Sequence record: OP557969.1
Reading direction: 5' to 3' (one strand)
DNA from: Escherichia phage ph0011
DNA length: 64,000 bases
Positions 8,368 through 24,984 of the stretch are shown piece by piece. Below the pieces are notes generated by a model. That model was not told the DNA's origin. It did no database searches and saw only the letters and a list, made by a program, of their open reading frames with translations. A program made the position numbers and the translations under genes. Every line of letters starts with the position of its first letter. The stretch's first letter is position 1.

Positions 8368-8370
8368 AAA

Positions 8371-8436: not shown

Positions 8437-8454
8437 AGTAAAGAGGAAAATAAA

Positions 8455-8840: not shown

Positions 8841-8906
8841 GTACTTGCTAATAGTTTTTAAACGCGTATAATGTTTTACATAGCAAGGGGAAACGGTTTC
8901 CCCTGG
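8841..8906 (+). promoter_or_regulatory. early promoter plus 5' leader hairpin cassette
   Basis: AGTACTTGCTA, TATAAT, GGGGAAAC-g-GTTTCCCC hairpin. Confidence 0.6.
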
Positions 8907-8924
8907 TAACTAAGGAATAAGAAA

Positions 8925-9161: not shown

Positions 9162-9162
9162 A

Positions 9163-9228
9163 GTACTTGATAATAGTTTTTAGTATTGTATAATATTTTA
9201 CATCGCAAGGGGGAGCGGTTCCCCCTGG
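9163..9228 (+). promoter_or_regulatory. early promoter plus 5' leader hairpin cassette
   Basis: AGTACTTGATA, TGTATAAT, GGGGGAGC-GGTTCCCCC hairpin. Confidence 0.55.
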
Positions 9229-9245
9229 TAACTAAGGATAATAAA

Positions 9246-9545
9246 ATGAAAATTGCAATCATCGCCCTGGCTTTATCTGTTTCCTCTTTCGCTGTTAATG
9301 CGTCATTAGATGTAAGTAGTGAAAAATTCATTCAGTGCACTGTTGCAATGACCGATGAAAGAACTGGCGAGATTGTATTAAAGGATTTAGAGATCCAGCC
9401 GGAAGCATTTAAAAACGGCCCGTTCCATGAAGAAGACGAAAACGGTAGTACAACAATTTATTATGATGCTAGTACTAAACGCGGTTCGGTCACGGTTATG
9501 GATACTGAGAAAGTAACTCATACAGGCGTTATTAATTGCCGTTGA
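9246..9545 (+). CDS. small secreted or periplasmic protein (99 aa) with Sec-type signal peptide
   Basis: N-terminus MKIAIIALALSVSSFAVNA with AxA-like cleavage site; two Cys in mature part. Confidence 0.6.
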   Translation: MKIAIIALALSVSSFAVNASLDVSSEKFIQCTVAMTDERTGEIVLKDLEIQPEAFKNGPFHEEDENGSTTIYYDASTKRGSVTVMDTEKVTHTGVINCR

Positions 9546-9566
9546 TTGATACTACGGGGTAACATC

Positions 9567-9797
9567 ATGACTAAGCGAATAGTTTTACTTAACGCTGGAA
9601 GTACTACACAACTCCTTAACGCCGTGCATTATGATATTGAAACGAGCGTCAATCTTATCAGTACTGTAGTATTGTTGGACACTGGAAAGGTCGCAAATGA
9701 TAAAGCGATTGCAGGTATACTAACGGATCTTAAACCAGGTTGCAGTACTCCAATAACTTTAAATGATAAAGTGTTTAATATTTTACTAACTGATTAA
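9567..9797 (+). CDS. hypothetical protein (76 aa)
   Basis: ATG 22 nt after upstream stop; weak RBS; intrinsic terminator follows. Confidence 0.45.
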   Translation: MTKRIVLLNAGSTTQLLNAVHYDIETSVNLISTVVLLDTGKVANDKAIAGILTDLKPGCSTPITLNDKVFNILLTD

Positions 9798-9803
9798 GTA
9801 CAT

Positions 9804-9830
9804 AGCCCACCAGGTGGGCTTTTTTGTTTT
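9804..9830 (+). terminator. rho-independent terminator
   Basis: AGCCCACC/GGTGGGCT stem then TTTTTTGTTTTT. Confidence 0.75.
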
Positions 9831-9872
9831 TGTAGTATTGTAGTACTGAGATACTTTGAAAATAGTTTTAAA

Positions 9873-9915
9873 AAAGTAGTTGACATTACCGCAAAAAGGC
9901 GTAGAATGTATTACA
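9873..9915 (+). promoter_or_regulatory. sigma70-type promoter followed by long structured leader
   Basis: TTGACA, 17-bp spacer, TAGAAT; about 100-nt leader related to the 6731 element. Confidence 0.5.
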
Positions 9916-10030
9916 TCAAGACGGGGAGCACTAAGTAGACCGCCAGTAAGTCGAACGAAAAACTGGACACGTCGAGAAAACTTTGATACACTAATAAACG
10001 TAAACTAAACTTTAATTGAGGATTTATAAA

Positions 10031-10513
10031 ATGGCGAATGTAAAATCATTTCTGAAAGCACTGATTTCCAACGATACTGCTATTGCGGCTGAACTGCTGG
10101 CGGATCTGGATAACGATACCATGAAAGCAGTACGCAACAATTTTAACATTGCGTACAGTGAAGCTAAAGAACTGCAAGCCAAAAAGGTAGCAGAACTGGA
10201 AGAACAGAAAAAAGCCCGTGAAGAAGAACTACAAGCAACGATTGAAAGTATTCAGGCGGCAGTTGCTGGGTTGGATCTGGATGTAGTTGTAGAAATGGCA
10301 CATAAAGCCCTGGCAGTTAAGTACGGGGAAGATAAGCCAGTAGCTAAACCTAAAAAATGGATTCAGGAACGCGTAACGGTTGTTCTTGATAATGGCGAAG
10401 AACATTTAATTCCCGTGCGTGGTAACTGCATTGCGGTAGTTCTGGATGCTATCAAAGAAAGCGGATTGACTCGCGAGGAATGGATCGAAGCTCACCGCAA
10501 AATTGAAGCATAA
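10031..10513 (+). CDS. hypothetical protein (160 aa), coiled-coil-rich N-terminal half
   Basis: Start at MANVKSF after RBS GAGGAT; charged heptad-like segment EEQKKAREEELQ. Confidence 0.65.
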   Translation: MANVKSFLKALISNDTAIAAELLADLDNDTMKAVRNNFNIAYSEAKELQAKKVAELEEQKKAREEELQATIESIQAAVAGLDLDVVVEMAHKALAVKYGEDKPVAKPKKWIQERVTVVLDNGEEHLIPVRGNCIAVVLDAIKESGLTREEWIEAHRKIEA

Positions 10514-10534
10514 CAATTAAAGTACTGAATCACT

Positions 10535-10568
10535 AGCCCACTTCTTATAGTGGGCTTTTTTGTGTTTA
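10535..10568 (+). terminator. rho-independent terminator
   Basis: AGCCCAC/GTGGGCT stem then TTTTTTGTGTTT. Confidence 0.7.
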
Positions 10569-10788
10569 TCGTTTACCAGTCCACTAGCACCGCCTAGAGT
10601 CGATTCTAACGCATTAAACTGATTATCTGATGAATAGCCCTAGCTGGTGGCGTTAATGCCGTTAGAACGCGATTGAGGACGTTTAAAGTATTTTGCAAAA
10701 AGTAATAAAAAGTACTTGCACGATTAAGAGATTAGAGTATAATTAATTACATCAAGACAAGACACCTTAACTAACTGAGGATATAAAG

Positions 10789-10941
10789 ATGAATACTTAT
10801 GAACTGGATTGTTTCACTTTACAAGTAATGTCAGTATGCAGTAAAAAAGATTGGTCATCAAAGGAATTTAAAGCAGTTATTGCGTGTGCAAAACACGGCA
10901 AGACTATCAATGAAACGGCATCAATCATTGATAAACTTTAA
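10789..10941 (+). CDS. micro-protein (about 50 aa), Cys-containing
   Basis: Promoter (TTGCAC..TATAAT), RBS GAGGAT, ATG; below ORF-track cutoff; hand-read. Confidence 0.4.
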   Translation: MNTYELDCFTLQVMSVCSKKDWSSKEFKAVIACAKHGKTINETASIIDKL

Positions 10942-11012
10942 AAAATAGTTTGACAATAGTTTTAAGTACTGCGATAATACATACATCAACTACTGAATAG
11001 GAATAAAAAACA

Positions 11013-11240
11013 ATGGCTATCGTAATCACTCGCGTAACTGGTACTACTGGCACTGCTTCAACTGTTGCTGTAATTACTAATAAGAAAGGTGCAGAATTAC
11101 ATTTTGCAATGGATAAATGGGCCGTTAATGAGTTTGGTCAGTGGGCAAGTGTAGAATACATTGAAACCTATCAAGTGCCATCGATTAGCTTAACTGATTT
11201 AGGTGTAGAACGTATCCTTTGCCTGGATGAATTAAATTAA
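11013..11240 (+). CDS. hypothetical protein (75 aa), Thr/Gly-rich N-terminus
   Basis: Promoter TTGACA..CGATAAT upstream; RBS AATAGG. Confidence 0.55.
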   Translation: MAIVITRVTGTTGTASTVAVITNKKGAELHFAMDKWAVNEFGQWASVEYIETYQVPSISLTDLGVERILCLDELN

Positions 11241-11326
11241 AAAAGTACTTGCAAAGTAAATCAAATAAAGTATAATACATTACATCAAGGGGAGAAAATG
11301 GTTCTCCCCACTAAGAGGAAACTAAT

Positions 11327-11470
11327 ATGAAAACTTGTCAATGTGGTAAAAAATCTATTACGGGTTTGAAACGGGGCGTTGCACTTTGCCAGTATCATTA
11401 TAATGCTCAAGTATGGGGTAAAGAATGGGCCGACCAGGTGGAAGCAGCAAAGAAAGCAAAAAGTAAGTAA
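11327..11470 (+). CDS. micro-protein (about 47 aa), possible zinc-ribbon (CxCG ... CQYH)
   Basis: Complete cassette: promoter, GGGGAGAA/TTCTCCCC hairpin, RBS AAGAGGAAA, ATG; hand-read. Confidence 0.45.
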   Translation: MKTCQCGKKSITGLKRGVALCQYHYNAQVWGKEWADQVEAAKKAKSK

Positions 11471-11482
11471 AAATATTATCAC

Positions 11483-11520
11483 AGTACTATTGACATAGAT
11501 TGATAGTACTGGCATAATAG
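11483..11520 (+). promoter_or_regulatory. class-2 early promoter (AGTACTATTGACA ... AGTACTGGCATAAT)
   Basis: TTGACA, 17-bp spacer, CATAAT, AGTACT flanking both elements; same module at about 14366 and 22582. Confidence 0.55.
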
Positions 11521-11551
11521 ATTTTATCAAGACAACTAAGAGGAAATTAAA

Positions 11552-11896
11552 ATGGCTAACATCAATACTATAGCAGCACAAAATATCAACCTGTCTTCTG
11601 TTGAAGTTGTACACATTGCCGCCCGGCGTTGGTTCCAGGCGTCTTATGGTAATACTTATTTCTCTTTAACGGTAGATGTTGAAATCAATGGCGAATTTAT
11701 TGAAGTAGTAAACGTGCCGTTCCAATATGGCTACGGGGATCATTTTGACACTGTAGCAATGGAAGAATTTAGCAAGGTTATTAATATGGAAGGTAAAGAG
11801 TTTTTACGCGGTTCTTATCTTTCCCGTTTTTGCCGTGATAATAATATTACTGTTTATAGTTCTGTTAGTGATGTTAAACGCAAAAAAGATCTTTAA
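11552..11896 (+). CDS. hypothetical protein, paralog of 18128..18451
   Basis: Shared GNTY, YGYG and C-terminal DVKRKKD; RBS AAGAGGAAA. Confidence 0.7.
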   Translation: MANINTIAAQNINLSSVEVVHIAARRWFQASYGNTYFSLTVDVEINGEFIEVVNVPFQYGYGDHFDTVAMEEFSKVINMEGKEFLRGSYLSRFCRDNNITVYSSVSDVKRKKDL

Positions 11897-11976
11897 TTAG
11901 CTTTACTTTATGCAGATACTTTGATATAGTGTCTGCATAGGGGAAAGAAATTAAATCAACTTAAGAGGATAGTAAA

Positions 11977-12246
11977 ATGAAAAATATCAGTACTTTAATC
12001 GATGCAGGTACACATGTTCGTCGGTCTATGGTTGCAACCAGTTCTACAAAACAAGTAGCGAGCGGTTATCTTGTATTTGTGCACGATGGTAAACTCCTGG
12101 AACGTTCAATCAATTTTGATGTTAAAAACAATTGCCGTTTTATTATCTTTCGCCGTGAACAATATAAGATCGACATTCCAGCGAAGCCCATTAGCGGGGC
12201 GTACAACGTGCAATCATTGTTTGAGCGTCAACCATACACCTATTAA
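11977..12246 (+). CDS. hypothetical protein (89 aa)
   Basis: RBS AAGAGGA upstream. Confidence 0.6.
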   Translation: MKNISTLIDAGTHVRRSMVATSSTKQVASGYLVFVHDGKLLERSINFDVKNNCRFIIFRREQYKIDIPAKPISGAYNVQSLFERQPYTY

Positions 12247-12297
12247 TCAAAACAACGTTAGCGGTCGATTTAGGCCGCTTATACTGGGGATTATATA

Positions 12298-12570
12298 ATG
12301 AATACTAATCAAGTACTGAACGAGATTGAAAGCATCATTAAACCGATGAAGCGTACTGATGCAATGTTAACACCGGAAGAATGCCGCTTATATGAGCGTT
12401 ACAGCGTCGAACAAGTACAGGAAATGGCTATGGCTATCCCTGCCGTTCAACAGCCTGAGAACGCAGTACAGGACGTTACAGGGGATTATAACATCAATCC
12501 AGTACTAGGGAAGATTACACCAATTACCGAAGAACAAAAAGACTACTTAAGCCAGTACTTAAAAGGTTAA
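12298..12570 (+). CDS. hypothetical protein (90 aa)
   Basis: RBS GGGGA upstream; acidic. Confidence 0.6.
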   Translation: MNTNQVLNEIESIIKPMKRTDAMLTPEECRLYERYSVEQVQEMAMAIPAVQQPENAVQDVTGDYNINPVLGKITPITEEQKDYLSQYLKG

Positions 12571-12575
12571 TTAAT

Positions 12576-12785
12576 ATGCTTACTGTACAGGATAAGATCG
12601 ACATCTTAAAGGTTAATATGTATGTGATTGATGCCGTACCTGGTAAAGTATTTGCATACGATGACACCACTGTAAGCAATTTCTACTATAGCCAGGAAGT
12701 GGGGGATCTTTCTGTACAGTCGGTTATTGAAAACGTAGTTAATGCAGCGTATGAGCATTTACTTTCAAATAGTACTTGCAATTAG
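12576..12785 (+). CDS. hypothetical protein (69 aa)
   Basis: ATG 6 nt after upstream stop. Confidence 0.5.
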   Translation: MLTVQDKIDILKVNMYVIDAVPGKVFAYDDTTVSNFYYSQEVGDLSVQSVIENVVNAAYEHLLSNSTCN

Positions 12786-12833
12786 TTTTTAAACGCGTAT
12801 AATGTTTTACATGAAGGGGAGAAATAGTACTCC
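12771..12833 (+). promoter_or_regulatory. early promoter plus 5' leader hairpin cassette
   Basis: AGTACTTGCAA, TATAAT, GGGGAGAAA-tag-TACTCCC hairpin. Confidence 0.55.
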
Positions 12834-12853
12834 CACTAATTAAGGAATAGTAA

Positions 12854-13000
12854 ATGAAAGCATCAAAAAAGAGTACTAACAAGAAAGCACGTTCAACTTT
12901 AGATGGGGTATTCCCTTTGCGTTTTGTGGATGAAGTAGTTTCCTACCCGCTGGGCCTTACTCCTGAGATGGTAGAAAGTTTGCGTAAATCTAAAAAATAG
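12854..13000 (+). CDS. micro-protein (about 48 aa), basic
   Basis: Cassette (promoter, hairpin, RBS TAAGGA) then ATG; hand-read. Confidence 0.4.
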   Translation: MKASKKSTNKKARSTLDGVFPLRFVDEVVSYPLGLTPEMVESLRKSKK

Positions 13001-13081
13001 TACTTGCAATTAGTTTTTAGTACTGTATAATGTTTTACATGAAGGGGAGAAATGATTCTCCCCAAGAACAGGAGAAACAAA

Positions 13082-13234
13082 ATGAAACAATACAACGCTC
13101 GGTTTGATGTTACTATCGGCAACGGCAAAGGTCAATTCTCTTTCAGTACTCGTAAGAGTTATACAGAAAACTTCTTGCGTAATTGTGCACTGACCGCCGC
13201 ACAAATTAAACATTATTTTCAGGCTAAAAAATGA
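13082..13234 (+). CDS. micro-protein (50 aa)
   Basis: Start at MKQYN after hairpin and RBS AGGAGA. Confidence 0.55.
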   Translation: MKQYNARFDVTIGNGKGQFSFSTRKSYTENFLRNCALTAAQIKHYFQAKK

Positions 13235-13320
13235 AATCATTAGCTTATTATAGTTCGGCCCTGGTCGGTGCATTGATCGCGGCATTGTTAGTAGCTTATC
13301 TATTCTTTATGGTGATTTAA
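13231..13320 (+). CDS. tiny hydrophobic peptide (about 29 aa), predicted single transmembrane helix
   Basis: ATGA overlap with upstream stop; MKSLAYYSSALVGALIAALLVAYLFFMVI; hand-read. Confidence 0.35.
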   Translation: MKSLAYYSSALVGALIAALLVAYLFFMVI

Positions 13321-13458
13321 ATGAATCCTAACGGTATAATTTACAGTACTCCTAAAACGAAAGCAGATAAAGCCAAAGCACGTAAAGCGAAAGTAAAGGA
13401 GTACATCAAGCAAGGCATGACACGAAAGGCGGCAGTACTGAAAGCTAAAAATAAATGA
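13321..13458 (+). CDS. lysine-rich micro-protein (about 45 aa)
   Basis: ATG directly after previous stop; highly basic; hand-read. Confidence 0.35.
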   Translation: MNPNGIIYSTPKTKADKAKARKAKVKEYIKQGMTRKAAVLKAKNK

Positions 13459-13459
13459 A

Positions 13460-13565
13460 AAAAGTGGTTGACTTCGGTCAGCCATTTTGCTATTATATAT
13501 TCATTGAGAGATAGCTCACTAGCCCACGGGGTGCGGGAGTGTATCTATTATATAAGCATTGAGTA
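13460..13565 (+). repeat. GGGTGCG-core intergenic element with its own TTGACT..TATTATATA promoter
   Basis: Related copies at about 17190, 20460 and 23200. Confidence 0.5.
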
Positions 13566-13606
13566 CTGAAAACTATTTTAAAAGTATTTGTAGAAAGTAC
13601 TTGCAA

Positions 13607-13660
13607 ACTATCTCAATAGGCGTATAATGTTTTACATCAAGGGGGAAACGGTTTCCCCTA
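13607..13660 (+). promoter_or_regulatory. early promoter plus 5' leader hairpin cassette
   Basis: AGTACTTGCAA, TATAAT, GGGGGAAAC-g-GTTTCCCC hairpin. Confidence 0.6.
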
Positions 13661-13678
13661 GTAATAAGGAATAAAATC

Positions 13679-14020
13679 ATGACTATTGCAATTGTACAAT
13701 CTAACTTTGAAAACGAAATCATCGCCCAAGCACTGCGTTTAAATGATGGTCGGGCCGAAATTAATTACGGTTTCAATTCAGGCGGTTGTGAAAAATATCA
13801 GTACTTTATAACTGCTGATGGCGGTGTCCTGGGTATTAATACAGTTATTGTAAACATTCAGAAAATTAATTTCAATGATCCAGACGATAGCCAGTTTTAC
13901 ATTATAGGCGTAGACGTGAACTATGAGGATGACTCACTAACTGATGATTACACTGGCGAGAAGTTAGAAAGTGCATACGGTGAAGATGATTATCAGTCAG
14001 TACCGGAAGATTTTGAATAA
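13679..14020 (+). CDS. hypothetical acidic protein (113 aa)
   Basis: RBS TAAGGA after hairpin; Asp/Glu-rich C-terminus. Confidence 0.65.
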   Translation: MTIAIVQSNFENEIIAQALRLNDGRAEINYGFNSGGCEKYQYFITADGGVLGINTVIVNIQKINFNDPDDSQFYIIGVDVNYEDDSLTDDYTGEKLESAYGEDDYQSVPEDFE

Positions 14021-14143
14021 TATTAAAAAATAGTTTGACAATAGATTATAGTACTGTATAATATTTTACATGAAGGGCAACGGGAAGTTTTTAAAACTTC
14101 CCTATAGGGAGAATAGTTCTCCCACTAACAGAGAGAAAACAAA

Positions 14144-14356
14144 ATGGCTAATATCTGCACTGTACTGAAAAATGCAAAACAAGTTTTATTTTCTGATCAC
14201 GATCATTTAAACAAGGATATTACTGGCGTTCGGAATATCAAAGATGTAAAAAGTGTTATGGGCATCTATTGCAATATGAAACGTGTTGGAACGTTCGGTA
14301 ATAAATTTCTATACCAAGCGGGGGATTACAATTTTACACTGACTATCATTAACTAA
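14144..14356 (+). CDS. hypothetical protein (70 aa)
   Basis: Promoter, double hairpin, RBS AGAGAGA. Confidence 0.6.
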   Translation: MANICTVLKNAKQVLFSDHDHLNKDITGVRNIKDVKSVMGIYCNMKRVGTFGNKFLYQAGDYNFTLTIIN

Positions 14357-14438
14357 AAATATTATCACAGTACTATTGACATAGATTGATAGTACTGGCA
14401 TAATAGATTTTATCAATTACACTACTAAGGAATTAAAA

Positions 14439-14618
14439 ATGGCTATCATCGCAAAAACTGAAATCATCGGCCTGGATTCTATCATCATGACGTTTGAAGA
14501 TCAAAAAGGTATGTATGTAGTTTCCTATGGTGATTATGTTCGGGAGTATGAAACGGTAGACGAAGCCTTTGAAAGTTACATTCGCCAGGTGAATAAAGCA
14601 TACGACGATTACCGCTAA
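14439..14618 (+). CDS. micro-protein (about 59 aa)
   Basis: Class-2 promoter, RBS TAAGGA, ATG; hand-read. Confidence 0.45.
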   Translation: MAIIAKTEIIGLDSIIMTFEDQKGMYVVSYGDYVREYETVDEAFESYIRQVNKAYDDYR

Positions 14619-14731
14619 AATATATTACCAGTACTATTAAAGATATTGACAACGTTTGATAGTACTGGCATAATAAGTTTTATAAACAGTAGTCAAATAG
14701 TAGTTAACTTAACAAAAGAGAGAGAAACAAA

Positions 14732-14875
14732 ATGATCGCACTGGATTCATTCATCGATGCAGTTCTGGCAAAAACTGGCGAGGATCTGACCGCAGAACAA
14801 TACGCGATGATCGAGCAATGCCAGCAAGACGGTAAATCGGTGAAAGATACTGTTAAGATTATCCGCAAGATGTAA
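14732..14875 (+). CDS. micro-protein (about 47 aa)
   Basis: Class-2 promoter, RBS AGAGAGAGA, ATG; hairpin follows; hand-read. Confidence 0.4.
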   Translation: MIALDSFIDAVLAKTGEDLTAEQYAMIEQCQQDGKSVKDTVKIIRKM

Positions 14876-14981
14876 GATTATAAGCCCATTAGTTAACGCT
14901 GGTGGGCTTTAATCATTTACCCTATACAATGCCAGTACTAAACCGTTTATCTCGTTAGAATGCATTACAGGACGTTTGACA

Positions 14982-15179
14982 ATGATTAGCATGAAATCAG
15001 TACAAAAACAAATAGAAACATTATCAAAAATTAAACGTAAACAGTACTCATTAGAATATAATATCAATGGTAACTATCATCTAATGAAAGAGAATAATTT
15101 TATCGTCATTGATGAATCATTGCAAATTATTAGTATAGTACTGAAAGCATTAATTAATGATAGAAAAAGGTTAAAATAA
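14982..15179 (+). CDS. hypothetical protein (about 65 aa)
   Basis: Track ORF begins at a TTG; first ATG chosen; no clear RBS. Confidence 0.35.
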   Translation: MISMKSVQKQIETLSKIKRKQYSLEYNINGNYHLMKENNFIVIDESLQIISIVLKALINDRKRLK

Positions 15180-15436
15180 TGGCAGTAGGATTCGCGAAAG
15201 ATGGAGCCGAGCAAGATGAGATTAACGCAGTTATTCAAGCCGCCGTTAACCACGCTAGAAAGCAAATTAACGCACAAATAGAATCACTGATACATTGCCT
15301 CGACTGCGGCGATAAAATCCCTGAGAATCGCCGACAGGCTGTTAAGGGTTGTAAGTACTGCATAACTTGCCAGGAGGATCATGATAGTACTTTTAAACGT
15401 CCCCCGCGTAATTGTTGGCATAGATCTATGAGATAA
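15179..15436 (+). CDS. TraR/DksA-family C4 zinc-finger protein
   Basis: C-x2-C-GDKIPENRR ... C-x2-C spacing typical of TraR-like proteins; start overlaps upstream stop. Confidence 0.7.
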   Translation: MAVGFAKDGAEQDEINAVIQAAVNHARKQINAQIESLIHCLDCGDKIPENRRQAVKGCKYCITCQEDHDSTFKRPPRNCWHRSMR

Positions 15437-15500
15437 AAAGTAATTGACAGTACTGAAAGATAGTGTATAATGTTTTATATCTTAACTGAGGATAGAAATC

Positions 15501-15857
15501 ATGGGAATACAACATATCACGCGGACCACTGACAATGGCGAGATCACTGGTTATCAAGTACAGGGCAAAGTAGCACAATTGCAGTACTGGTTTGTTAAAC
15601 GTGGAATCATTGCACCGGATCTTGATTATGACCGTGTAGCGTTTATTGATTCTCTTTATGTTGATCCTGATAGTCGGGGCAATGGTGAAGGTAACGAATT
15701 AATGAATGCCTTTATTGATGCCGCCGATGATTCAGATTGTATCATCTTAGAATGCGATACGGGAGAAGATAACGCCTTTAATCTTAAAGAATGGTACGAA
15801 GGTTTCGGATTCGAGGTATTGATAGATAGTGAATATCCTATCATGATTTTATCATAG
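15501..15857 (+). CDS. probable small GNAT-family acetyltransferase
   Basis: FIDSLYVDPDSRGNGEGNELMNAF resembles GNAT motif A; 118 aa. Confidence 0.4.
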   Translation: MGIQHITRTTDNGEITGYQVQGKVAQLQYWFVKRGIIAPDLDYDRVAFIDSLYVDPDSRGNGEGNELMNAFIDAADDSDCIILECDTGEDNAFNLKEWYEGFGFEVLIDSEYPIMILS

Positions 15858-15936
15858 TACTTGCATTTAGTTTTCAGTACTGTTATAGTACTTGCATCAA
15901 GGGGAAACATCTTCCCCTACTAAGAGGAAATAAAAA

Positions 15937-16125
15937 ATGGAAAACTTATCAAGTATTTTAGTACAAGATGATTTCGGTAATCCTGGAAGTGCTATCATTG
16001 TTCGGGGCAATAAAGCAACGTTTGTTATTGCTGGTGGACCCGTACAGCGTAGCATTAAAAATAATGCTGTTACCATTAATAATGTACGCTATCGCTTAGA
16101 TAAAGAATTAATTCATAAACTGTAA
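15937..16125 (+). CDS. hypothetical protein (62 aa)
   Basis: Promoter, GGGGAAAC..TTCCCC hairpin, RBS AAGAGGAAA. Confidence 0.6.
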   Translation: MENLSSILVQDDFGNPGSAIIVRGNKATFVIAGGPVQRSIKNNAVTINNVRYRLDKELIHKL

Positions 16126-16152
16126 TATTAATTTAATAGAGGATAACAATAA

Positions 16153-16476
16153 ATGTACATTCATACTACTGTCACAAAGGAAGTCCGTTGCCAGTTCGAA
16201 AGTATTCCGGGCGTATGTTTCATCACTGGTACGTTTTCCCCTGGTGATCGTGATAATCCAGTACTGTTACAGTTACGCCATCCATTATGGGATAAAGCAT
16301 TTGATCTGCCGTTGAATGAATTCGCAACCACTGCTGATAAGTACATTAAAAATATTCGCGAGAATGATTGCCTATTCATTAATGCTTTTAGTGATGCCGC
16401 GTTAAGTGAGATCCATGCTGTATTGGTTGCAATCATGGAATCAATGGAGAAAACTATATTCAAACAAGGTGAATAA
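16153..16476 (+). CDS. hypothetical protein (107 aa)
   Basis: RBS AGAGGA upstream. Confidence 0.6.
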   Translation: MYIHTTVTKEVRCQFESIPGVCFITGTFSPGDRDNPVLLQLRHPLWDKAFDLPLNEFATTADKYIKNIRENDCLFINAFSDAALSEIHAVLVAIMESMEKTIFKQGE

Positions 16477-16481
16477 AAACT

Positions 16482-16542
16482 ATTGACAATGCAATCCAGT
16501 ACTGTATAATAGTTTACATGAAGGGGAGAAATGATTCTCCCC
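16482..16542 (+). promoter_or_regulatory. early promoter plus 5' leader hairpin cassette
   Basis: TTGACA, AGTACTGTATAAT, GGGGAGAA-atga-TTCTCCCC perfect palindrome. Confidence 0.65.
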
Positions 16543-16559
16543 ACTAAGAGGAAAGAAAA

Positions 16560-16772
16560 ATGCAAGGTCAACTAATCGTTCGTAAATGGTCTGATACTAA
16601 CGAAAAACCGTGGGATGTACAATACATCGCCCCAAATGGTGAATCCAGATATCAACCAGGTGTAACGCATAGTACTGAGCAATTCGCCGCCGCTCATCGC
16701 GAACGTCTGTTACAATCAATGCAGCACGGTTCCGGTGAAAAATTCATTCAGGATCATTGGCTGAAAGATTAA
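16560..16772 (+). CDS. hypothetical protein (70 aa)
   Basis: ATG after hairpin and RBS AAGAGGAAA. Confidence 0.65.
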   Translation: MQGQLIVRKWSDTNEKPWDVQYIAPNGESRYQPGVTHSTEQFAAAHRERLLQSMQHGSGEKFIQDHWLKD

Positions 16773-16858
16773 AAAGTACTTGCACAGTACTGAATAAAGT
16801 GTATAATGTTTTATATCGGAAGGGGAATAGTTCCCCTCCTAACAAAGAGGAAAGTATA

Positions 16859-17032
16859 ATGGTCCAGGTAGAATTAACAGTACTGAAAGATCTGTTTTAT
16901 CGGATTGGTACTACTGGCGAATATCCGAAGGGTGATAATGCAAAACTTTACGTATCACTCGACTTATGGCAACGCGAACAATTAGCAACGGCCTGGCGTA
17001 AAGGCAAAGCAGATAGCGAGGTGAAAGCATGA
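16859..17032 (+). CDS. micro-protein (57 aa)
   Basis: Start at MVQVEL after hairpin and RBS AAGAGGAAA. Confidence 0.55.
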   Translation: MVQVELTVLKDLFYRIGTTGEYPKGDNAKLYVSLDLWQREQLATAWRKGKADSEVKA

Positions 17033-17178
17033 AAGAATTCTTATTTGAAGTAGTGTTTCAAGGTGTCGGTAATAACCAACTGATTCGATCAAGTGGTTAT
17101 AATGTTAACCAGGCATGGAATAACATTAAACAAATGTACCCTAACGCTATCACATATCGCAACCCGAAAGAAGTTTAA
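17029..17178 (+). CDS. micro-protein (about 49 aa)
   Basis: ATGA overlap with upstream stop; hand-read. Confidence 0.35.
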   Translation: MKEFLFEVVFQGVGNNQLIRSSGYNVNQAWNNIKQMYPNAITYRNPKEV

Positions 17179-17189
17179 AAATATTTGAA

Positions 17190-17290
17190 AAAGGGATTGA
17201 CTCCGGTCAGTCCCTTTGCTATTATATACGCATAGAAACAAATCAGCCCACAGGGTGCATAAATGTATCTATTGTTTGCTGGTGGCTAGT
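17190..17290 (+). repeat. GGGTGCG-core intergenic element with own promoter
   Basis: GGGATTGACTCCGGTCAGTCCCTTTGCTATTATATA then AGCCCACAGGGTGCAT; near-identical 5' part at 20460 and 23200. Confidence 0.5.
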
Positions 17291-17353
17291 ACTGAAAACT
17301 ATTTTTAAAAAAGTACTTGCATTGTACTTAGAATCAAGTATAATGTTTTACAT

Positions 17354-17424
17354 CAGGACGGGGAACGAAATAAGTAACCCCGTTAAGTAGTCCAGGAGTA
17401 AGACATACGAAAAACTCCCCTGAT
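17354..17424 (+). other. structured about 75-nt leader element (copy 2)
   Basis: Near-identical to 6731-6803; between tandem promoters upstream of 17494. Confidence 0.45.
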
Positions 17425-17493
17425 AAAATAGTTTGACAATAGAAAGTAAACGAGTATAATACTTACATCAACCACTGATAAGGAAACATTAAA

Positions 17494-17769
17494 ATGCGGA
17501 CTTTACTTACAGCTAACGAAATCGAGCAAGTACTGACTACTAATCTGGAACAATGGAAACGTGAAGCAGATATCCAGGCGGTTCAATGCCTTAACGATAA
17601 GTTAACGCCAGATGACTTAAGCACGATTGTTGATCCACAATTTTATGAAGATATTCACGACACGTCTTTAAGCGTCGAGGATGTACTTGATAAGCACTAC
17701 ATTGATACTGATTTACATGTTTACGGTCGTAAAAACTTTATCACTATTCACGACATTTACAATACTTAA
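17494..17769 (+). CDS. hypothetical acidic protein (91 aa)
   Basis: RBS TAAGGAAA upstream. Confidence 0.65.
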   Translation: MRTLLTANEIEQVLTTNLEQWKREADIQAVQCLNDKLTPDDLSTIVDPQFYEDIHDTSLSVEDVLDKHYIDTDLHVYGRKNFITIHDIYNT

Positions 17770-17772
17770 GTA

Positions 17773-17836
17773 TTGACAAAGTATCTTAGTACTGTATAAT
17801 AGTTTACATCAAGTGAGGGGAAACGGTTCCCCTCCT
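17773..17836 (+). promoter_or_regulatory. early promoter plus 5' leader hairpin cassette (duplicate A)
   Basis: TTGACA, AGTACTGTATAAT, GAGGGGAA..TTCCCCTC hairpin; about 85-bp near-identical copy at 18044-18127. Confidence 0.65.
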
Positions 17837-17857
17837 AACAAAGAGAGAGAAATTAAA

Positions 17858-18040
17858 ATGGCTAAGTGCACTATCTGTAAGAAAGAAATCGTATTAGTTC
17901 CAAGTGCCCGTGAACGTGCCGCTCGGTTCGGTGGCAAAGCGTCAGACTATACAAAAATGTTTACTGCCCATGCAGCTTGTCAAGTAGCAAAACGTTCACA
18001 AGAAAGCGTAGAATTAATGCGTAAACTTTCCAAAAAATAA
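17858..18040 (+). CDS. micro-protein (60 aa), Cys/Lys-rich
   Basis: Start at MAKCTICKKE after hairpin and RBS AGAGAGAGA; start set from track frame. Confidence 0.6.
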   Translation: MAKCTICKKEIVLVPSARERAARFGGKASDYTKMFTAHAACQVAKRSQESVELMRKLSKK

Positions 18041-18043
18041 GTA

Positions 18044-18104
18044 TTGACAAAGTATCTTAGTACTGTATAATAGTTTACATCAAGCGAGGGGAATGGTTCC
18101 CCTC
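18044..18104 (+). promoter_or_regulatory. early promoter plus 5' leader hairpin cassette (duplicate B)
   Basis: Near-identical to 17773-17836. Confidence 0.65.
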
Positions 18105-18127
18105 CTAACAAAGAGAGAGAAATAAAA

Positions 18128-18451
18128 ATGGCTATGATCCTTACCCAGAAAGTAGAACTGAAAATTGTAACCTCCTTTGACATTAAAGTTAATCGGTGGA
18201 CTGATAGCCACGGCAATACTTACCACTCCTGCTACGTGTCCGCATTGATTGGTGATCGCTGGGAAGACCTGGGACACGAAACCTTTACATACGGTTACGG
18301 CACACAAGGCGAGTACACGGGTTTAGAAATCATTAAGGAAACTGTAATAGGTTTCAACCCGAAAGAGAAAGTACTACACAGAATTGAGAAAGAGATCAAC
18401 AAAGAAATTACAGTTCGCTACTACGATGTAAAACGTAAGAAAGACATGTAA
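18128..18451 (+). CDS. hypothetical protein, paralog of 11552..11896
   Basis: Shared GNTY, YGYG, DVKRKKD. Confidence 0.7.
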   Translation: MAMILTQKVELKIVTSFDIKVNRWTDSHGNTYHSCYVSALIGDRWEDLGHETFTYGYGTQGEYTGLEIIKETVIGFNPKEKVLHRIEKEINKEITVRYYDVKRKKDM

Positions 18452-18546
18452 TAGAATCCATTTAAAGTACTATTTGACATTGCCCAGATAGTACTTTATA
18501 ATAGACTCTAACTTGTAGTACTAACTTAACTAATAGGATGTATACC

Positions 18547-18942
18547 ATGATTACTAAATTCTACGCTACCCGTGAAGCTGCCCGTATTGTTGCACGCGAG
18601 GAAGGAGCAGCATTTAAAGACATGGGCAAAGATGCACCGAAAGGTCAACGCTGGGCCGTACAGTTCAAAGAAATCTCTGATATTGTGAATTCACCTGAGC
18701 CAGTACTGACAGCAGCAGAACTAAAACGAGCGGATATGCTGGCGGCAATACTTGACGCACAAGATGAGTTTATCGCTGATTCTGATATCAAAGTACAGGT
18801 AAACCACACCGCATGGACTCACGCGGATCACCTGGCAAACCTTAAGCGTCCAAGTGAACTGATTCGCAACCAGAAAGAGATCCGACATGATCGTAAGGGT
18901 AATCGTGTAACAGTATACAGTAAACGCCGCCAGGTTATCTAA
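18547..18942 (+). CDS. hypothetical protein, paralog of 5861..6127
   Basis: Start at MITKFYATRE (RBS AGGA 8 nt upstream). Confidence 0.6.
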   Translation: MITKFYATREAARIVAREEGAAFKDMGKDAPKGQRWAVQFKEISDIVNSPEPVLTAAELKRADMLAAILDAQDEFIADSDIKVQVNHTAWTHADHLANLKRPSELIRNQKEIRHDRKGNRVTVYSKRRQVI

Positions 18943-18964
18943 TAACTTGCAGTACTAACAACAC

Positions 18965-18990
18965 GGCGGGATCAGTTCCCGCCTTTTTTA
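18965..18990 (+). terminator. rho-independent terminator
   Basis: GGCGGGA/TCCCGCC stem then TTTTTTA; same stem type as leader hairpins but with a U-run. Confidence 0.7.
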
Positions 18991-19003
18991 TAGGACAAAC
19001 AAA

Positions 19004-19258
19004 ATGATTAAGGTTCAACTATATAAAGATAACATCTTACGGGTACACTATAAAGCACCGAAGAGAATCATCACAAAGGCCGTACAGCTTGCTAATGAGT
19101 TTATTAATGGTAACCTATTACCGAGGAAGTTAAGCAACGGGAAACTGCGTGTAATCGATGTGGACACTAACAACAGGATAGTAATCGAGAACACAGGAAA
19201 GATAAACCTTTATGAGCATCAACAATACAATAAGAAAATAAAACTAATATCACGTTGA
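19004..19258 (+). CDS. hypothetical basic protein (84 aa)
   Basis: RBS AGGACAAACAAA. Confidence 0.55.
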   Translation: MIKVQLYKDNILRVHYKAPKRIITKAVQLANEFINGNLLPRKLSNGKLRVIDVDTNNRIVIENTGKINLYEHQQYNKKIKLISR

Positions 19259-19311
19259 CAGTACTCAATTGTTTTAGTATTATGTACACATACCAACACG
19301 GGAGAAACAAA

Positions 19312-19530
19312 ATGAAATTATCTAAAATCGAAAAGAAAACTATTGATGAAGCAGTTAAGCACGGTTATACCTTTCGTAATGATTCACATTTTACCAATTT
19401 TCAACAAGGGTATCGTACTATTAAAAAACTAATTGACAAAGGTTTATTAGTTGAAGTCAATAACGGTAACGGTATCGAGTATCAACCAACACAGGACGCA
19501 TTTTATTTTAAGAAATATAATATTATCTAA
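19312..19530 (+). CDS. hypothetical protein (72 aa)
   Basis: Start at MKLSKIEKK after RBS GGGAGAAACAAA. Confidence 0.55.
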   Translation: MKLSKIEKKTIDEAVKHGYTFRNDSHFTNFQQGYRTIKKLIDKGLLVEVNNGNGIEYQPTQDAFYFKKYNII

Positions 19531-19588
19531 TTGACAGTACTCAAATGTTTTAGTACTATATGTACATACCAACACGGGGGGAAACAAA

Positions 19589-19831
19589 ATGATTACTTTA
19601 GAAAAACGTATCAAAGAAACTACATCGCTGGTGGAACTGTTAACAGTACTCAAATGTAAAACAACACCATTCAGCACGCCGGACTTTATTAATATGGTTG
19701 ATGTTAATGGTCGCTATCGTATCACGGTCGAACAAGGAGCGGCGAAAGTATTCAGTACTAAAAACACGAAGGAAGTGATCCACGCCGTTAATGTTAAAAA
19801 AGTAGTTGCCATTGATAGTAAAGTACTGTAA
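19589..19831 (+). CDS. hypothetical protein (80 aa)
   Basis: RBS GGGGGGAAACAAA; upstream module repeats that of 19312. Confidence 0.55.
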   Translation: MITLEKRIKETTSLVELLTVLKCKTTPFSTPDFINMVDVNGRYRITVEQGAAKVFSTKNTKEVIHAVNVKKVVAIDSKVL

Positions 19832-19862
19832 TATAGTTTCATTAACTCAAGGAGAACATGCA

Positions 19863-20447
19863 ATGCGTAATTATACTAAATTCATCCGTACACTGTCAGA
19901 AATGGAAACCAACAAAGAGATCCTTTCAGCTTGTCGGTTAGCTGGCCTGGAGATCATCGGTGCTGGTTCTTCCCGTATAGTTTTCGCTTTAAATGATCGG
20001 TTAGTGATTAAGGTCGCGAATTGTGATGCGGGTGTAGAACAAAATGAAACTGAATGTAAGGTATGGAATTTTTTAGACTATGACCGCCCTCAATTGAAAC
20101 AGTACTTTGCAAAGGTGCATATGCATTTATGCGATCCTGATAATATGTTTATCGTTATGGATCGGTTGAGTACTGCAAGCAAAGGCAGTGTGAAGCACGT
20201 AAACGCGTGCAATGAATTAAAGTACAATATTAAACGTAATGCAATCGAACGCCAGCACCGCTTTGCTGATGCACTACAACACGTTGATGATACATTATCA
20301 ACACTAACGATAAGAGATATCAGAAAACAGAATATCGGCCAGGATCGTAATGGACTTATTAAAGTACTTGATTACGGTTTAACCAGCAATATCTGGAATC
20401 AGTACTATAAAAAGCGTGATGTGGCAGCAAGTAAGGTAACACGATAA
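19863..20447 (+). CDS. minimal protein-kinase-like protein (about 195 aa)
   Basis: Gly-rich loop IIGAGSSRIVF, Lys motif LVIKVA, catalytic-loop-like IRDIRKQN, DFG-like LDYG in canonical order and spacing; RBS AAGGAG. Confidence 0.6.
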   Translation: MRNYTKFIRTLSEMETNKEILSACRLAGLEIIGAGSSRIVFALNDRLVIKVANCDAGVEQNETECKVWNFLDYDRPQLKQYFAKVHMHLCDPDNMFIVMDRLSTASKGSVKHVNACNELKYNIKRNAIERQHRFADALQHVDDTLSTLTIRDIRKQNIGQDRNGLIKVLDYGLTSNIWNQYYKKRDVAASKVTR

Positions 20448-20459
20448 AAAAGATTAAAA

Positions 20460-20560
20460 AAGGGATTGACTCCGGTCAGTCCCTTTGCTATTATATATCC
20501 ATTGAGAGATAACTCACTGACCCATAGGGTGCGGAAGTGTATCTATTATATAAGTATTCA
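20460..20560 (+). repeat. GGGTGCG-core intergenic element with own promoter
   Basis: GGGATTGACTCCGGTCAGTCCCTTTGCTATTATATA ... CCCATAGGGTGCGGAAGTGTATCTAT. Confidence 0.5.
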
Positions 20561-20667
20561 GTACTGAAAACTATTTTTAAAAAAGTACTTGCATTGTACT
20601 TAGAATCAAGTATAATGTTTTATATCGAGAGGGGGAATGGTTCTCCCTGGCAATAAGGAATAAAATC

Positions 20668-20889
20668 ATGACTACAATGACTTGCATTTACGCTTCTAAT
20701 CTTCTGAATGATGCGGCCTTTAATGTTGATTCAGAATATCAATGTTATCGGGATGAAAATAAAAAAGTTTTTGTAGTTGATAATAATGGTTTCCATATTG
20801 AATTACAATCCGGCTTCACTGGTGTTGATGGTAAATCAGTATGGGGCGTACAGGATGATAAAGGCACATATCATTTTAAACGTAATTAA
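20668..20889 (+). CDS. hypothetical protein (73 aa)
   Basis: Promoter, GGGGGAATGGTTCTCCC hairpin, RBS TAAGGA. Confidence 0.65.
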   Translation: MTTMTCIYASNLLNDAAFNVDSEYQCYRDENKKVFVVDNNGFHIELQSGFTGVDGKSVWGVQDDKGTYHFKRN

Positions 20890-20892
20890 GTA

Positions 20893-20951
20893 TTGACAAA
20901 GTATATCAGTACTGTATAATAGTTTACATCAAGGGGAGAATAGTTCTCCCC
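20893..20951 (+). promoter_or_regulatory. early promoter plus 5' leader hairpin cassette (duplicate C)
   Basis: TTGACA, AGTACTGTATAAT, GGGGAGAA-tag-TTCTCCCC; near-identical copy at 21385-21442. Confidence 0.65.
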
Positions 20952-20972
20952 GATACTAAAAGGAATAAAATC

Positions 20973-21377
20973 ATGACTACTACTAATCAAGCTCGGTCCA
21001 TCGCCAACGATAAAAATCATGCTGCAATGGTCGCTGGTTACATTGAAGCTATGCAATTCAGTACTGTACACAATGAGAACGGCGATTACCTGGAAGATTA
21101 TGAATTATCAGAGCAAGCCCATCAAGCGGCGGTGATTGCATGTTCTCGCTTCATTGAGAAACACGGTAATGATCTGGAAGTAGTTCGCGGTATGTTTATT
21201 GATTACGGTTATGAGCAAGCTGGTCATGATCTCTTTCTTACTCGCGAAGGTCACGGCACTGGTTTTTGGGATCGTGGTTTAGGTCACTATGGCGATGTAT
21301 TCACGAAGTACTGCGAAGAAATCAACGTTTGCGATCCCTATGTAGGCGATGATAATCTAATCTATATGGGCGAATAA
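20973..21377 (+). CDS. hypothetical protein (134 aa)
   Basis: RBS AAAGGA after hairpin. Confidence 0.65.
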   Translation: MTTTNQARSIANDKNHAAMVAGYIEAMQFSTVHNENGDYLEDYELSEQAHQAAVIACSRFIEKHGNDLEVVRGMFIDYGYEQAGHDLFLTREGHGTGFWDRGLGHYGDVFTKYCEEINVCDPYVGDDNLIYMGE

Positions 21378-21384
21378 AAGTATT

Positions 21385-21442
21385 TGACAAAGTATATCAG
21401 TACTGTATAATAGTTTACATCAAGGGGAGAATAGTTCTCCCC
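21385..21442 (+). promoter_or_regulatory. early promoter plus 5' leader hairpin cassette (duplicate D)
   Basis: Near-identical to 20893-20951. Confidence 0.65.
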
Positions 21443-21461
21443 ACTAAAAGGAAACAAAATT

Positions 21462-21734
21462 ATGTCTAGCTACTCCGCAACTATGATCATCAAAGATATG
21501 AATAACAATCCTACCGCCGCTGGTGGATCGTTCGGTAACATTAACCTAGATGGTCGGTTATCCATGCAATCAGCCATCGATGCAGCGAAAGAAGTTTTTA
21601 AGAATGAATGTACTGTTAGTAAGCTGGATTATATGGGTTTCGCTATCGAGAAAACTACTCGTTTTGTGAACTACAAAAATCCACTGATGATTGATACTAA
21701 CCTGAAAGCTAACGAAGTGGGGTACTTATTATGA
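21462..21734 (+). CDS. hypothetical protein (90 aa)
   Basis: RBS AAAGGAAAC after hairpin. Confidence 0.65.
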   Translation: MSSYSATMIIKDMNNNPTAAGGSFGNINLDGRLSMQSAIDAAKEVFKNECTVSKLDYMGFAIEKTTRFVNYKNPLMIDTNLKANEVGYLL

Positions 21735-24537: not shown

Positions 24538-24699
24538 TGCGTAAAAGGATTTAGTACTGATTCAGAAAAAAGTCAAGGCGTTTTTAAAATTATGCGTTAA
24601 AAAAATGCATAGGTAATCCCTTGACTTTTTTGAAATAAAAGGGATTGGACTATGGCAAAATGCGTAGGGGGCTAAAGGGCGGGTAACCTTAGCGACTTC

Positions 24700-24750
24700 G
24701 ATAAAGGGGTATTACGAATAAAATGTTATTGACTTTTTATATAAATCGTA
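24700..24750 (+). promoter_or_regulatory. sigma70-type promoter heading the FamB array
   Basis: TTGACT, about 17-bp spacer, TATAAAAT; no further promoter seen for several kb. Confidence 0.5.
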
Positions 24751-24756
24751 TAAAAT

Positions 24757-24984
24757 ATGATTGATAATAATTTTAAGGGAGTCCCTGTGCGTATTTTAAC
24801 TCAAGCAGAACACCACGAAAGACTTATTAACAATATGGCTATGATAATGTATAAGTCACATAAACGTGGTATTGCCTATAAGCATGAATTAGTACTGGAA
24901 CTATTCATTGGGACTAACTATCAGGAAAGGTATGTCAACGATTGGATTTGGTATTTAATTGAAGATATAACGAGTAAACTATGA
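24757..24984 (+). CDS. FamB small protein
   Basis: Motif FIGTNYQERYV; first array member. Confidence 0.55.
   Translation: MIDNNFKGVPVRILTQAEHHERLINNMAMIMYKSHKRGIAYKHELVLELFIGTNYQERYVNDWIWYLIEDITSKL

Follow-up and report, generated by a model that had tools for sequence, protein, structure and literature searches.

The window (the whole stretch of 64,000 nucleotides of Escherichia phage ph0011 that was analyzed) shows an abrupt change in base composition and gene architecture at about 24.6 kb, and the question that this locus raises is what this change corresponds to. The first-pass annotation had proposed that it separates either different expression classes or blocks of different evolutionary origins. 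The present analysis identifies it as the inner end of a direct terminal repeat (DTR) of ~21 kb, a feature that has already been annotated and published for the genus Asteriusvirus; the DTR boundary itself is an expected feature in this genus. A 5-kb query over the flagged site matched 43 phage records with 85-98% identity, all of them assigned to the PBECO4/121Q/G17/phAPEC6/fEgEco12 group of the genus Asteriusvirus (jumbo coliphages or Salmonella phages), the genomes of these relatives having sizes of 347-386 kb. Judging from these matches, the window is part of an Asteriusvirus jumbo coliphage genome (PBECO4/121Q/fEgEco12 group).

The compositional step was confirmed and has strong statistical support. 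The GC content is 0.381 in positions 3358-24689 compared to 0.316 in positions 24760-64000 and 0.322 in positions 1-3082, and the 1-kb profile ranges from 0.35 to 0.42 at 3-25 kb, from 0.31 to 0.33 in the first 3 kb and from 0.27 to 0.35 past 25 kb (with a single 1-kb segment reaching 0.37). A binomial two-change-point fit, unsupervised and made without prior information, placed the breaks at ~3,790 and 24,709 (support interval of the second break: 24,501-27,358), with a log-likelihood gain of 134 over the absence of any break. Across the gap between the genes ending at 24537 and starting at 24757, the GC content per gene falls from 0.41-0.47 to 0.30-0.37 and the codon adaptation index (CAI) per gene from 0.44-0.55 to 0.20-0.27. 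The same GC step is found in the relative vB_Ec-M-J (0.386 vs 0.324). The boundary that had been placed at about 24.6 kb and the higher GC content of the block upstream of it were thus both recovered. Codon usage also differs significantly between the genes of the DTR and those located downstream (chi2 = 1107, 60 df). As had been noticed, CTG and CGT are favored in the DTR (0.25 vs 0.07 and 0.42 vs 0.25, respectively), as is CGC (0.22 vs 0.07), and ATA and AGA are favored downstream (0.30 vs 0.11 and 0.37 vs 0.09). By contrast, the downstream genes had been described as rich in AAA, which is not the case, this codon accounting for 0.68 of the Lys codons downstream vs 0.73 in the DTR.

The gene architecture changes as well: (i) consecutive genes are a median 76 nt apart in the DTR, compared to 7.5 nt in 1-3082 and -4 nt downstream, (ii) overlaps concern 7/55 gene junctions in the DTR compared to 74/101 downstream, (iii) of the perfect 12/12 TTGACA-N16-17-TATAAT promoters on the + strand, 12 lie in the DTR, two downstream and none upstream, and (iv) a recognizable promoter precedes 33 of the 56 DTR genes, only one of the 102 downstream genes and none of the 12 upstream ones. 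The first-pass description of one promoter per gene before the boundary, and of long coupled operons with hardly any promoter after it, therefore holds. It had also likened positions 1-3082 to the downstream block, which proved to be correct for the AT richness and the tight packing of the genes but not for other characters. This block, made of tightly packed paralogs of 60-77 aa including a 9-member family (phrog_11711), has a negative GC skew (-0.21 to -0.29), a GC3 of 0.361 that equals that of the DTR, and codon preferences that differ from those of the downstream block (CTA and CTC are favored, and ATA reaches 0.54).

The comparison with related genomes gives a structural explanation of both breaks. 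The blocks that it delimits are the following:

1 to 3357, + strand: right-hand end of the unique region, which would precede the terminal repeat in the packaged genome; AT-rich, its homologues precede the right repeat copy of the relatives
3358 to 24689, + strand: DTR of 21,332 bp, delimited from the termini of three independent linear records, from GenBank annotation and, for fEgEco12, from PhageTerm and restriction data
24689 to 24690, no strand: inner, right-hand limit of the left DTR copy, equivalent to the right physical terminus of the virion DNA; ...GGGCGGGTAACCT / TAGCGACTTCG..., from base-level alignment to relatives
24757 to 32644, + strand: about 30 paralogous genes of 63-95 aa (phrog_4148), mostly with 4-nt overlaps (ATGA)
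33330 to 58122, + strand: further AT-rich arrays of translationally coupled paralogs of 100-200 aa, belonging to families without assigned function

The linear records of vB_Ec-M-J, fEgEco12 and E9.1 begin at AGTAGGCAGAGG, which aligns base for base with position 3358 of the window, and end at GGGTAACCT, which corresponds to position 24689, the flanks being conserved; the start base common to fEgEco12 and E9.1, AGTAGGCAGAGGAAGTCTGCC, is window position 3358. The repeat is present at both genome ends in fEgEco12 (Finland) and E9.1 (Philippines), which are independent deposits. In each of these relatives, exactly 152 nt separate the stop of the last repeat gene from the genome end. Furthermore, the GenBank record of vB_Ec-M-J carries a 'Direct Terminal Repeats' annotation at 1..21525, whose end falls after the homologue of window ORF 24328-24537 and before that of 24757-24984, and the base-level alignment with this phage reads ...GGGCGGGTAACCT up to the edge at 24689, then TAGCGAC. 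The genome ends of three relatives thus map to 3358 and 24689, which places the inner edge of the DTR within the flagged interval. Positions 1-3357 are homologous to the sequence found in vB_Ec-M-J, fEgEco12 and E9.1 just ahead of the right repeat copy, and the sequence from 24690 onward matches the region located past the left repeat copy in the relatives. The homology of positions 1-3357 indicates that the assembly has collapsed the two repeat copies and permuted the genome. From these alignments, the DTR appears to be present once in the assembly, in the order right unique end (1-3357), repeat, left unique region (24690 onward). The break seen at 3.1-3.4 kb would be the other edge of the DTR and hence a physical genome end. 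The DTR of the phage carrying the window is itself inferred by homology, with 92-98% identity. For the 3358-24689 block, the first-pass annotation had thus seen the boundary in GC content and architecture but had missed its structural identity as a terminal repeat.

DTRs of 20,993 bp in fEgEco12 (PhageTerm, confirmed with restriction digests) and of 20,668 bp in Sharanji (PhageTerm) were reported in the papers describing these phages. These two repeats and that of vB_Ec-M-J (21,525 bp) have edge sequences, gene order and a 152-nt tail identical to those of the window; the window repeat, collapsed to a single copy of 21,332 bp, differs in length from those of its Asteriusvirus relatives because of indels. 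The fEgEco12 and Sharanji papers are silent on the repeat's promoters, composition and codon usage. For annotation purposes, this comparison fixes the physical ends of the genome at 3358 and 24689 and accounts for the two compositional breaks of the window without horizontal transfer.

The junction itself, within 24540-24760, is bordered or occupied by three features:

24328 to 24537, + strand: last DTR gene (69 aa), the genomes of relatives ending 152 nt after its stop
24566 to 24631, + strand: nested hairpin located between an A-run and a T-run, its outer stem (AAAAAAGTCAAGG / CCTTGACTTTTTT) having 13 bp
24729 to 24756, + strand: sigma-70-like promoter TTGACT-16-TAAAAT, 40 nt beyond the repeat edge and conserved in relatives

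The stop of the last DTR gene (24537) is followed by an AGTACT site at 24553 and then by the hairpin. The 163-nt stretch 24538-24700 that includes this hairpin has an MFE of -44.8 kcal/mol (z = -3.75), and none of 200 shuffled sequences folds as well. Both the hairpin and the terminus are nearly invariant among relatives. In its structure, the hairpin looks like a terminator that would close the transcription of the DTR ~58 nt ahead of the repeat edge; it is separated from this edge by a G-rich stretch ending at 24689. Beyond the edge, the promoter found at 24729-24756 is a predicted head of the first operon of the unique region. It is followed by an AAGGGAG RBS, then by a GTG at 24788, where the relatives have an ATG; this GTG is probably the true start of the first gene of the arrays.

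The repeat has a distinctive gene content, whose main components are:

3358 to 5018, + strand: untranslated left leader, with many TCAGTACTGA palindromes and an 8-bp-period tandem array at 4184-4295
5019 to 24537, + strand: ~55 small, mostly singleton genes, most of them in a promoter-hairpin-RBS-ORF cassette
15179 to 15436, + strand: DksA/TraR-type C4 zinc-finger protein (Pfam PF01258, E = 1.1e-11, over the curated cut-off)
15501 to 15857, + strand: GNAT acetyltransferase (Pfam PF00583, E = 4.1e-9, over the curated cut-off)
19806 to 20447, + strand: weak, sub-threshold protein-kinase-like match (Pfam PF00069, E = 0.0049, 16.7 bits for a cut-off of 31.7)

The first 1.66 kb of the DTR, with a GC content of ~0.37, contains no convincing ORF, and the first annotated CDS of the relatives lies 1.69-1.76 kb from the terminus. 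A perfect sigma-70 promoter is found in this leader at 3753-3780 with no ORF behind it, and an Rfam search of the DTR including the 1.66-kb untranslated leader gave no match at E <= 0.1. In the remainder of the repeat, the cassettes succeed one another with the same order, i.e., promoter, ACATCAA start region, 5' hairpin (GGGGAGAA..TTCTCCCC), RBS and ORF. The promoters are of two kinds, TTGACA-N9-AGTACT-g-TATAAT or AGTACTTGCA-N16-TATAAT, and all 19 copies of the latter are located within the DTR. Altogether, 12 consensus promoters are perfect and 21 are near-perfect (at least 11/12). The 5' leaders of the DTR genes have a median length of 50 nt and a median MFE of -11.6 kcal/mol. Only 6/56 DTR genes have a paralog in the window.

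Pfam and PHROGs scans covered 12 of the ~56 DTR proteins, the small ones being left out. Among the scanned proteins, they gave no functional annotation beyond the DksA/TraR-type protein, the GNAT acetyltransferase and the weak kinase-like match, whose homologue in fEgEco12 is annotated as a Ser/Thr kinase; the ten largest remaining DTR proteins matched only PHROGs families of unknown function, as did nearly all of the PHROGs queries on either side of the boundary. From its domain, the DksA/TraR-type protein is a candidate modulator of the host RNA polymerase. Together with the GNAT acetyltransferase, it would fit host-takeover functions. The ~55 small DTR proteins are good candidates for host-takeover or anti-defense functions, these roles being predicted only.

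The adaptation of the DTR genes to the codon usage of the host was evaluated by using 29 ribosomal-protein and elongation-factor genes of E. coli as the CAI reference. The CAI is 0.41 in the DTR compared to 0.28 downstream (p = 8e-16) and 0.26 upstream (p = 5e-6). Since the CAI is low in the upstream block at a GC3 equal to that of the DTR, this gap is not merely an effect of GC content, and a pure GC account of it was rejected. No tRNA gene was found in the 64-kb window, and the phage tRNAs were therefore taken from the relative Sharanji, which encodes Thr(TGT), Arg(TCT), Gly(TCC), Ser(TGA), Ser(ACT), Asn(GTT) and a CAT tRNA (six of these seven anticodons were confirmed with ARAGORN, Thr(TGT) coming from the annotation of the record). 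The cognate codons are depleted in the DTR compared to the downstream genes: AGA (0.089 vs 0.375, p = 3e-17), ACA (0.168 vs 0.491, p = 1e-24), GGA (0.129 vs 0.298) and ATA (0.112 vs 0.298), the latter counting as a codon read by a phage tRNA on condition that the CAT tRNA is Ile-type, as is probable. Taken together, ACA, AGA, GGA and ATA represent 10-14% of their synonymous families throughout the DTR and 32-51% outside, with a step at both repeat edges. Such host-like codons fit genes that need to be translated before phage tRNAs exist. It should be emphasized that these four codons all end in A and are thus partly confounded with AT content, although the upstream block argues otherwise. Furthermore, translational selection alone cannot account for the whole difference, since the amino acid composition shifts as well (GC at codon positions 1+2 of 0.413 in the DTR vs 0.336 downstream; Ala content of 7.3% vs 3.1%).

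The DTR thus displays, within defined repeat edges, a composition step, promoter-per-gene cassettes, host-like codons and an avoidance of phage-tRNA codons. We consider it highly probable that the interval 24540-24760 is the junction between the DTR and the unique region, that the DTR is an immediate-early 'host-takeover' module transcribed by the host RNA polymerase and that the arrays are under a separate promoter. After injection, the sigma-70 RNA polymerase of the host would fire the ~40 or more strong promoters of the DTR, each of them leading to the expression of one small gene from an mRNA whose 5' end would be a stabilizing hairpin. In this proposal, the DTR genes would use codons preferred by E. 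coli and avoid AGA, GGA, ACA and ATA because they must be translated by the naive tRNA pool of the host; these codons would turn cheap only after the phage tRNAs Arg-UCU, Gly-UCC, Thr-UGU and CAU (probably of the Ile type) have been made. The terminator-like hairpin would end the module 58 nt ahead of the repeat edge, and a separate promoter located 40 nt past this edge would drive the long, translationally coupled operons of fast-diversifying AT-rich paralogs. The part of this proposal that concerns early transcription by the host enzyme is likely, judging from the promoter sequences and from a phage of a different genus. The proposal describes at the sequence level the early module presumed for phages of the genus Asteriusvirus, a group under development for phage therapy.

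Our literature search found no Asteriusvirus transcriptome, but other phages with long terminal repeats provide precedents. PA5oct (PMC7318152) has a DTR of 39,080 bp with 105 genes, most highly transcribed 5 min post infection according to RNA-seq, and its infection is rifampicin-sensitive and dependent on the host RNA polymerase. CBB carries RpoD-like promoters at genes suspected to be early, in part on a predicted repeat of 22,456 bp (51 ORFs). Like the window, these two phages combine a long DTR, many small genes of unknown function and TTGAC/TATAAT-type promoters, and their tRNA sets overlap with the one considered here (Arg-TCT, Gly-TCC, Thr-TGT, Ser-TGA, Asn-GTT and CAT). However, they belong to other genera and infect other hosts, their likeness to the window is one of organization, promoters and tRNA sets, and the PA5oct repeat, nearly twice as long, includes some structural genes, unlike that of the window. 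In SPO1 (PMC10531801), the terminal redundancy (13,185 bp) is filled with a host-takeover module of ~24 small, mostly novel genes, by which host functions are redirected. The window shares with it a cluster of small genes in the terminal redundancy, the functions of the products being only predicted in the window, but SPO1 infects a Gram-positive host, belongs to the unrelated family Herelleviridae, has hmU DNA and shows no homology with the window. The PA5oct precedent, added to the sigma-70 promoters, the host-like codons and the avoidance of phage-tRNA codons, makes the different expression classes suggested by the first-pass annotation well supported, by inference.

The step could also result mainly from the arrays, i.e., from fast-duplicating accessory genes that, under relaxed selection, undergo AT drift driven by the mutational bias of the phage, next to a DTR that keeps the composition of the genome, the coincidence with the repeat edge reflecting the insertion site of the arrays. 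The GC content of the structural core of a relative (0.34-0.39) is similar to that of the DTR (0.38), the arrays being at 0.27-0.35 and the published genome means at 34-36% (fEgEco12 and Sharanji papers). Therefore, the AT-rich paralog arrays, and not the DTR, are the compositional outliers, and a part of the step corresponds to their AT drift. Furthermore, conservation is weaker in the arrays, with 89% identity to vB_Ec-M-J vs 94% for the DTR; paralogs are found for 51/102 array genes compared to 6/56 DTR genes, and the shift in amino acid composition goes in the same direction. However, such drift leaves unexplained the promoter-per-gene design, the high CAI of the DTR compared to the upstream block at equal GC3 and the steps in phage-tRNA codons at both repeat edges. 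As the main cause of the boundary, it is possible but rather doubtful; it complements an early module located in the DTR more than it competes with it. Another explanation for an elevated GC content within a repeat would be recombination, the two copies being homogenized at every cycle with GC-biased repair of heteroduplexes. The elevated GC content indeed stops within ~20 bp of the repeat edge and the repeat is better conserved than its flanks, but the GC content of the DTR does not exceed that of the structural core, its GC3 is the same as that of the upstream block (0.361) and a choice of codons preferred by E. coli is not expected from a general GC bias. Among the explanations considered, this one seems to us the least credible.

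The different evolutionary origins that had been suggested would imply horizontal transfer from another genome, either of the GC-richer cassettes or of the AT-rich arrays. The large differences in GC content, codons and amino acids between the blocks, and the absence of any paralog family spanning the boundary, go in this direction. However, both blocks are found in the same order in essentially all of the 30-40 related genomes, with 85-98% identity, the composition of the DTR is that of the phage core, and the AGTACT word is enriched in both blocks (6.3 per kb in the whole DTR and 2.4 per kb downstream, compared to 0.13 per kb in the 38 kb of E. coli DNA that were sampled). This shared enrichment indicates that both are long-resident phage DNA. 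A recent horizontal origin of either block was rejected on the basis of this synteny, conservation and common enrichment, and this part of the first-pass annotation is not supported; separate origins of the blocks are, more generally, very unlikely.

A comparison with T5 (bioRxiv 10.1101/866236), whose pre-early genes lie in the left terminal repeat and enter according to a first-step transfer model, suggests still another role for the boundary: the DTR would enter first and injection would pause near its inner edge, for example at the 24566-24631 hairpin, until DTR proteins act. Both phages have a long DTR (~6% of the genome in the window phage, ~8% in T5), first-expressed genes under many strong sigma-70 promoters recognized by the host RNA polymerase (this expression being predicted in the window) and a complex, repeat-rich untranslated region, and the window has a strong structure near the edge. 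However, the DnaA boxes that form the conserved core of the T5 injection-stop region are at chance level here (10 TTWTNCACA sites vs 12.3 expected); the DTR includes only two of them, at 10885 and 13787, outside of its untranslated regions. A T5-like injection-stop signal was rejected on these grounds. Moreover, no annotated family suggesting A1 or A2 was detected among the 12 of ~56 DTR proteins scanned with Pfam and PHROGs, the large untranslated region is located at the outer and not at the inner end of the repeat, and two-step transfer is unreported for this clade of contractile-tailed jumbo phages. Since the window DTR has no DnaA-box array and no A1/A2 homologue detectable among these 12 proteins, its membership in the T5 mechanism is not supported, and a pause of this type has a very small probability, slightly below that of separate origins.

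The AGTACT palindrome deserves separate consideration. The window contains 248 copies vs 19.3 +/- 4.2 expected, and the structural genes of a relative contain 106 vs 18 expected. Core stretches of 30 kb include 73 copies in RaK2 and 64 in GAP32 compared to five in 38 kb of E. coli, and CAGTACTG is found 16 times in RaK2 vs 0.3 expected. The over-representation is 6- to 19-fold across the phage clade, with ~2 copies per kb in the core genes of Asteriusvirus, RaK2 and GAP32. In coding DNA, the word occurs in all three codon phases, which points to a signal at the DNA level. Its density is the highest in the intergenic spacers of the DTR (11 per kb). There, the promoters carry one or two copies, abutting the -35 box and directly 5' of the -10 box, at fixed offsets from the latter (-7/-8 and -27). 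The copy located beside the -10 box was considered as an extended -10 motif and rejected, its TG being one base too near TATAAT.

A literature search for AGTACT with PBECO4, 121Q, RaK2 or GAP32 found nothing. Its enrichment in the clade and in the DTR promoters may be a new by-product of this analysis. We tentatively suggest that the repeat edge might mark a division of labor hitherto undescribed in this clade, the DTR suiting the naive tRNAs of the host and the rest of the genome the phage tRNAs, with AGTACT marking the DTR promoters. This codon/tRNA partition and this word are modest additions to a known DTR feature and provide cheap hypotheses that are open to testing. In the DTR promoters, AGTACT could act as an operator, bound by a phage factor that would mark early transcription or switch it off. 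As a clade-wide signature, it may be recognized by a phage protein that tells phage DNA from host DNA.

The block upstream of the direct terminal repeat (DTR) and the region from 25 to 64 kb are different compositional classes. The GC skew of 1-3082 is strongly negative (-0.21 to -0.29) and becomes positive downstream, although all genes of this block lie on the + strand, as they do downstream. It also has distinct codon preferences (CTA/CTC for Leu, and ATA for a 0.54 fraction of Ile codons), and these two properties therefore set it apart from 25-64 kb. Between this block and the repeat, in sequence that relatives conserve poorly, lies a short duplication, about 210-260 nt short of the left end of the DTR:

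3099-3117 and 3130-3148, two copies of the perfect 19-nt direct repeat ATTGTTAAAATTCAGCCTG, 31 nt apart

The initial 1.66 kb of the DTR (3358-5018) is devoid of any convincing ORF. Two features were found in this untranslated leader:

3753-3780, perfect consensus promoter, gene-less downstream
4184-4295, tandem array of about 14 units with an 8-bp period, variants ACGGCTAG / ATGGCTAA

Since no gene follows this perfect promoter, the leader may be the source of a non-coding RNA. An Rfam search of 3358-5018 returned no match. In the related jumbo phage PA5oct, abundant early non-coding RNAs were reported at 8263-8498 and 21951-22401 (PMC7318152), and these would also lie inside the 39-kb DTR of that phage, provided that its genome numbering begins at the repeat start. 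The array looks like iterons.

Two kinds of hairpins recur within the DTR:

16527-16545, 20936-20954 and 21427-21445, examples of the leader hairpin GGGGAGAA-(3-4 nt)-TTCTCCCC
17190-17217, 20459-20486 and 23206-23233, three identical copies of the 28-nt perfect hairpin AAAGGGATTGACTCCGGTCAGTCCCTTT

The former is conserved in the 5′ leaders of many of these genes (5.4-23.4 kb), where it follows the transcription start region (ACATCAA) and precedes the ribosome-binding site. Because no T-run comes after it, it is probably not a terminator but a 5′ mRNA stabiliser or a regulatory element. The latter has a putative promoter embedded in its 12-bp stem, since its left arm carries a TTGACT -35 box, after which TATTAT comes.

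The palindrome AGTACT is 6- to 19-fold over-represented; it was noted in the window and also in loci L008, L011 and L012. The whole window contains 248 copies (19 expected), with the peak density in the DTR (3358-24689), and the structural genes of one relative contain 106 (18 expected). Enrichment was also found in the related phages RaK2 and GAP32; the palindrome is scarce in E. coli (five copies in 38 kb). A literature search on AGTACT tied to PBECO4, 121Q, RaK2 and GAP32 found no report. All three codon phases are represented, and a longer form, TCAGTACTGA, is frequent. In the DTR promoters, AGTACT occupies fixed offsets, immediately 5′ of the -10 box and adjoining the -35 box.

Just past the repeat, the mechanically called ORF 24757-24984 begins at an ATG (24757) that lies within a promoter -10 region. 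Its true start is probably the GTG at 24788, which is preceded by an AAGGGAG ribosome-binding site and corresponds in position to an ATG in relatives.
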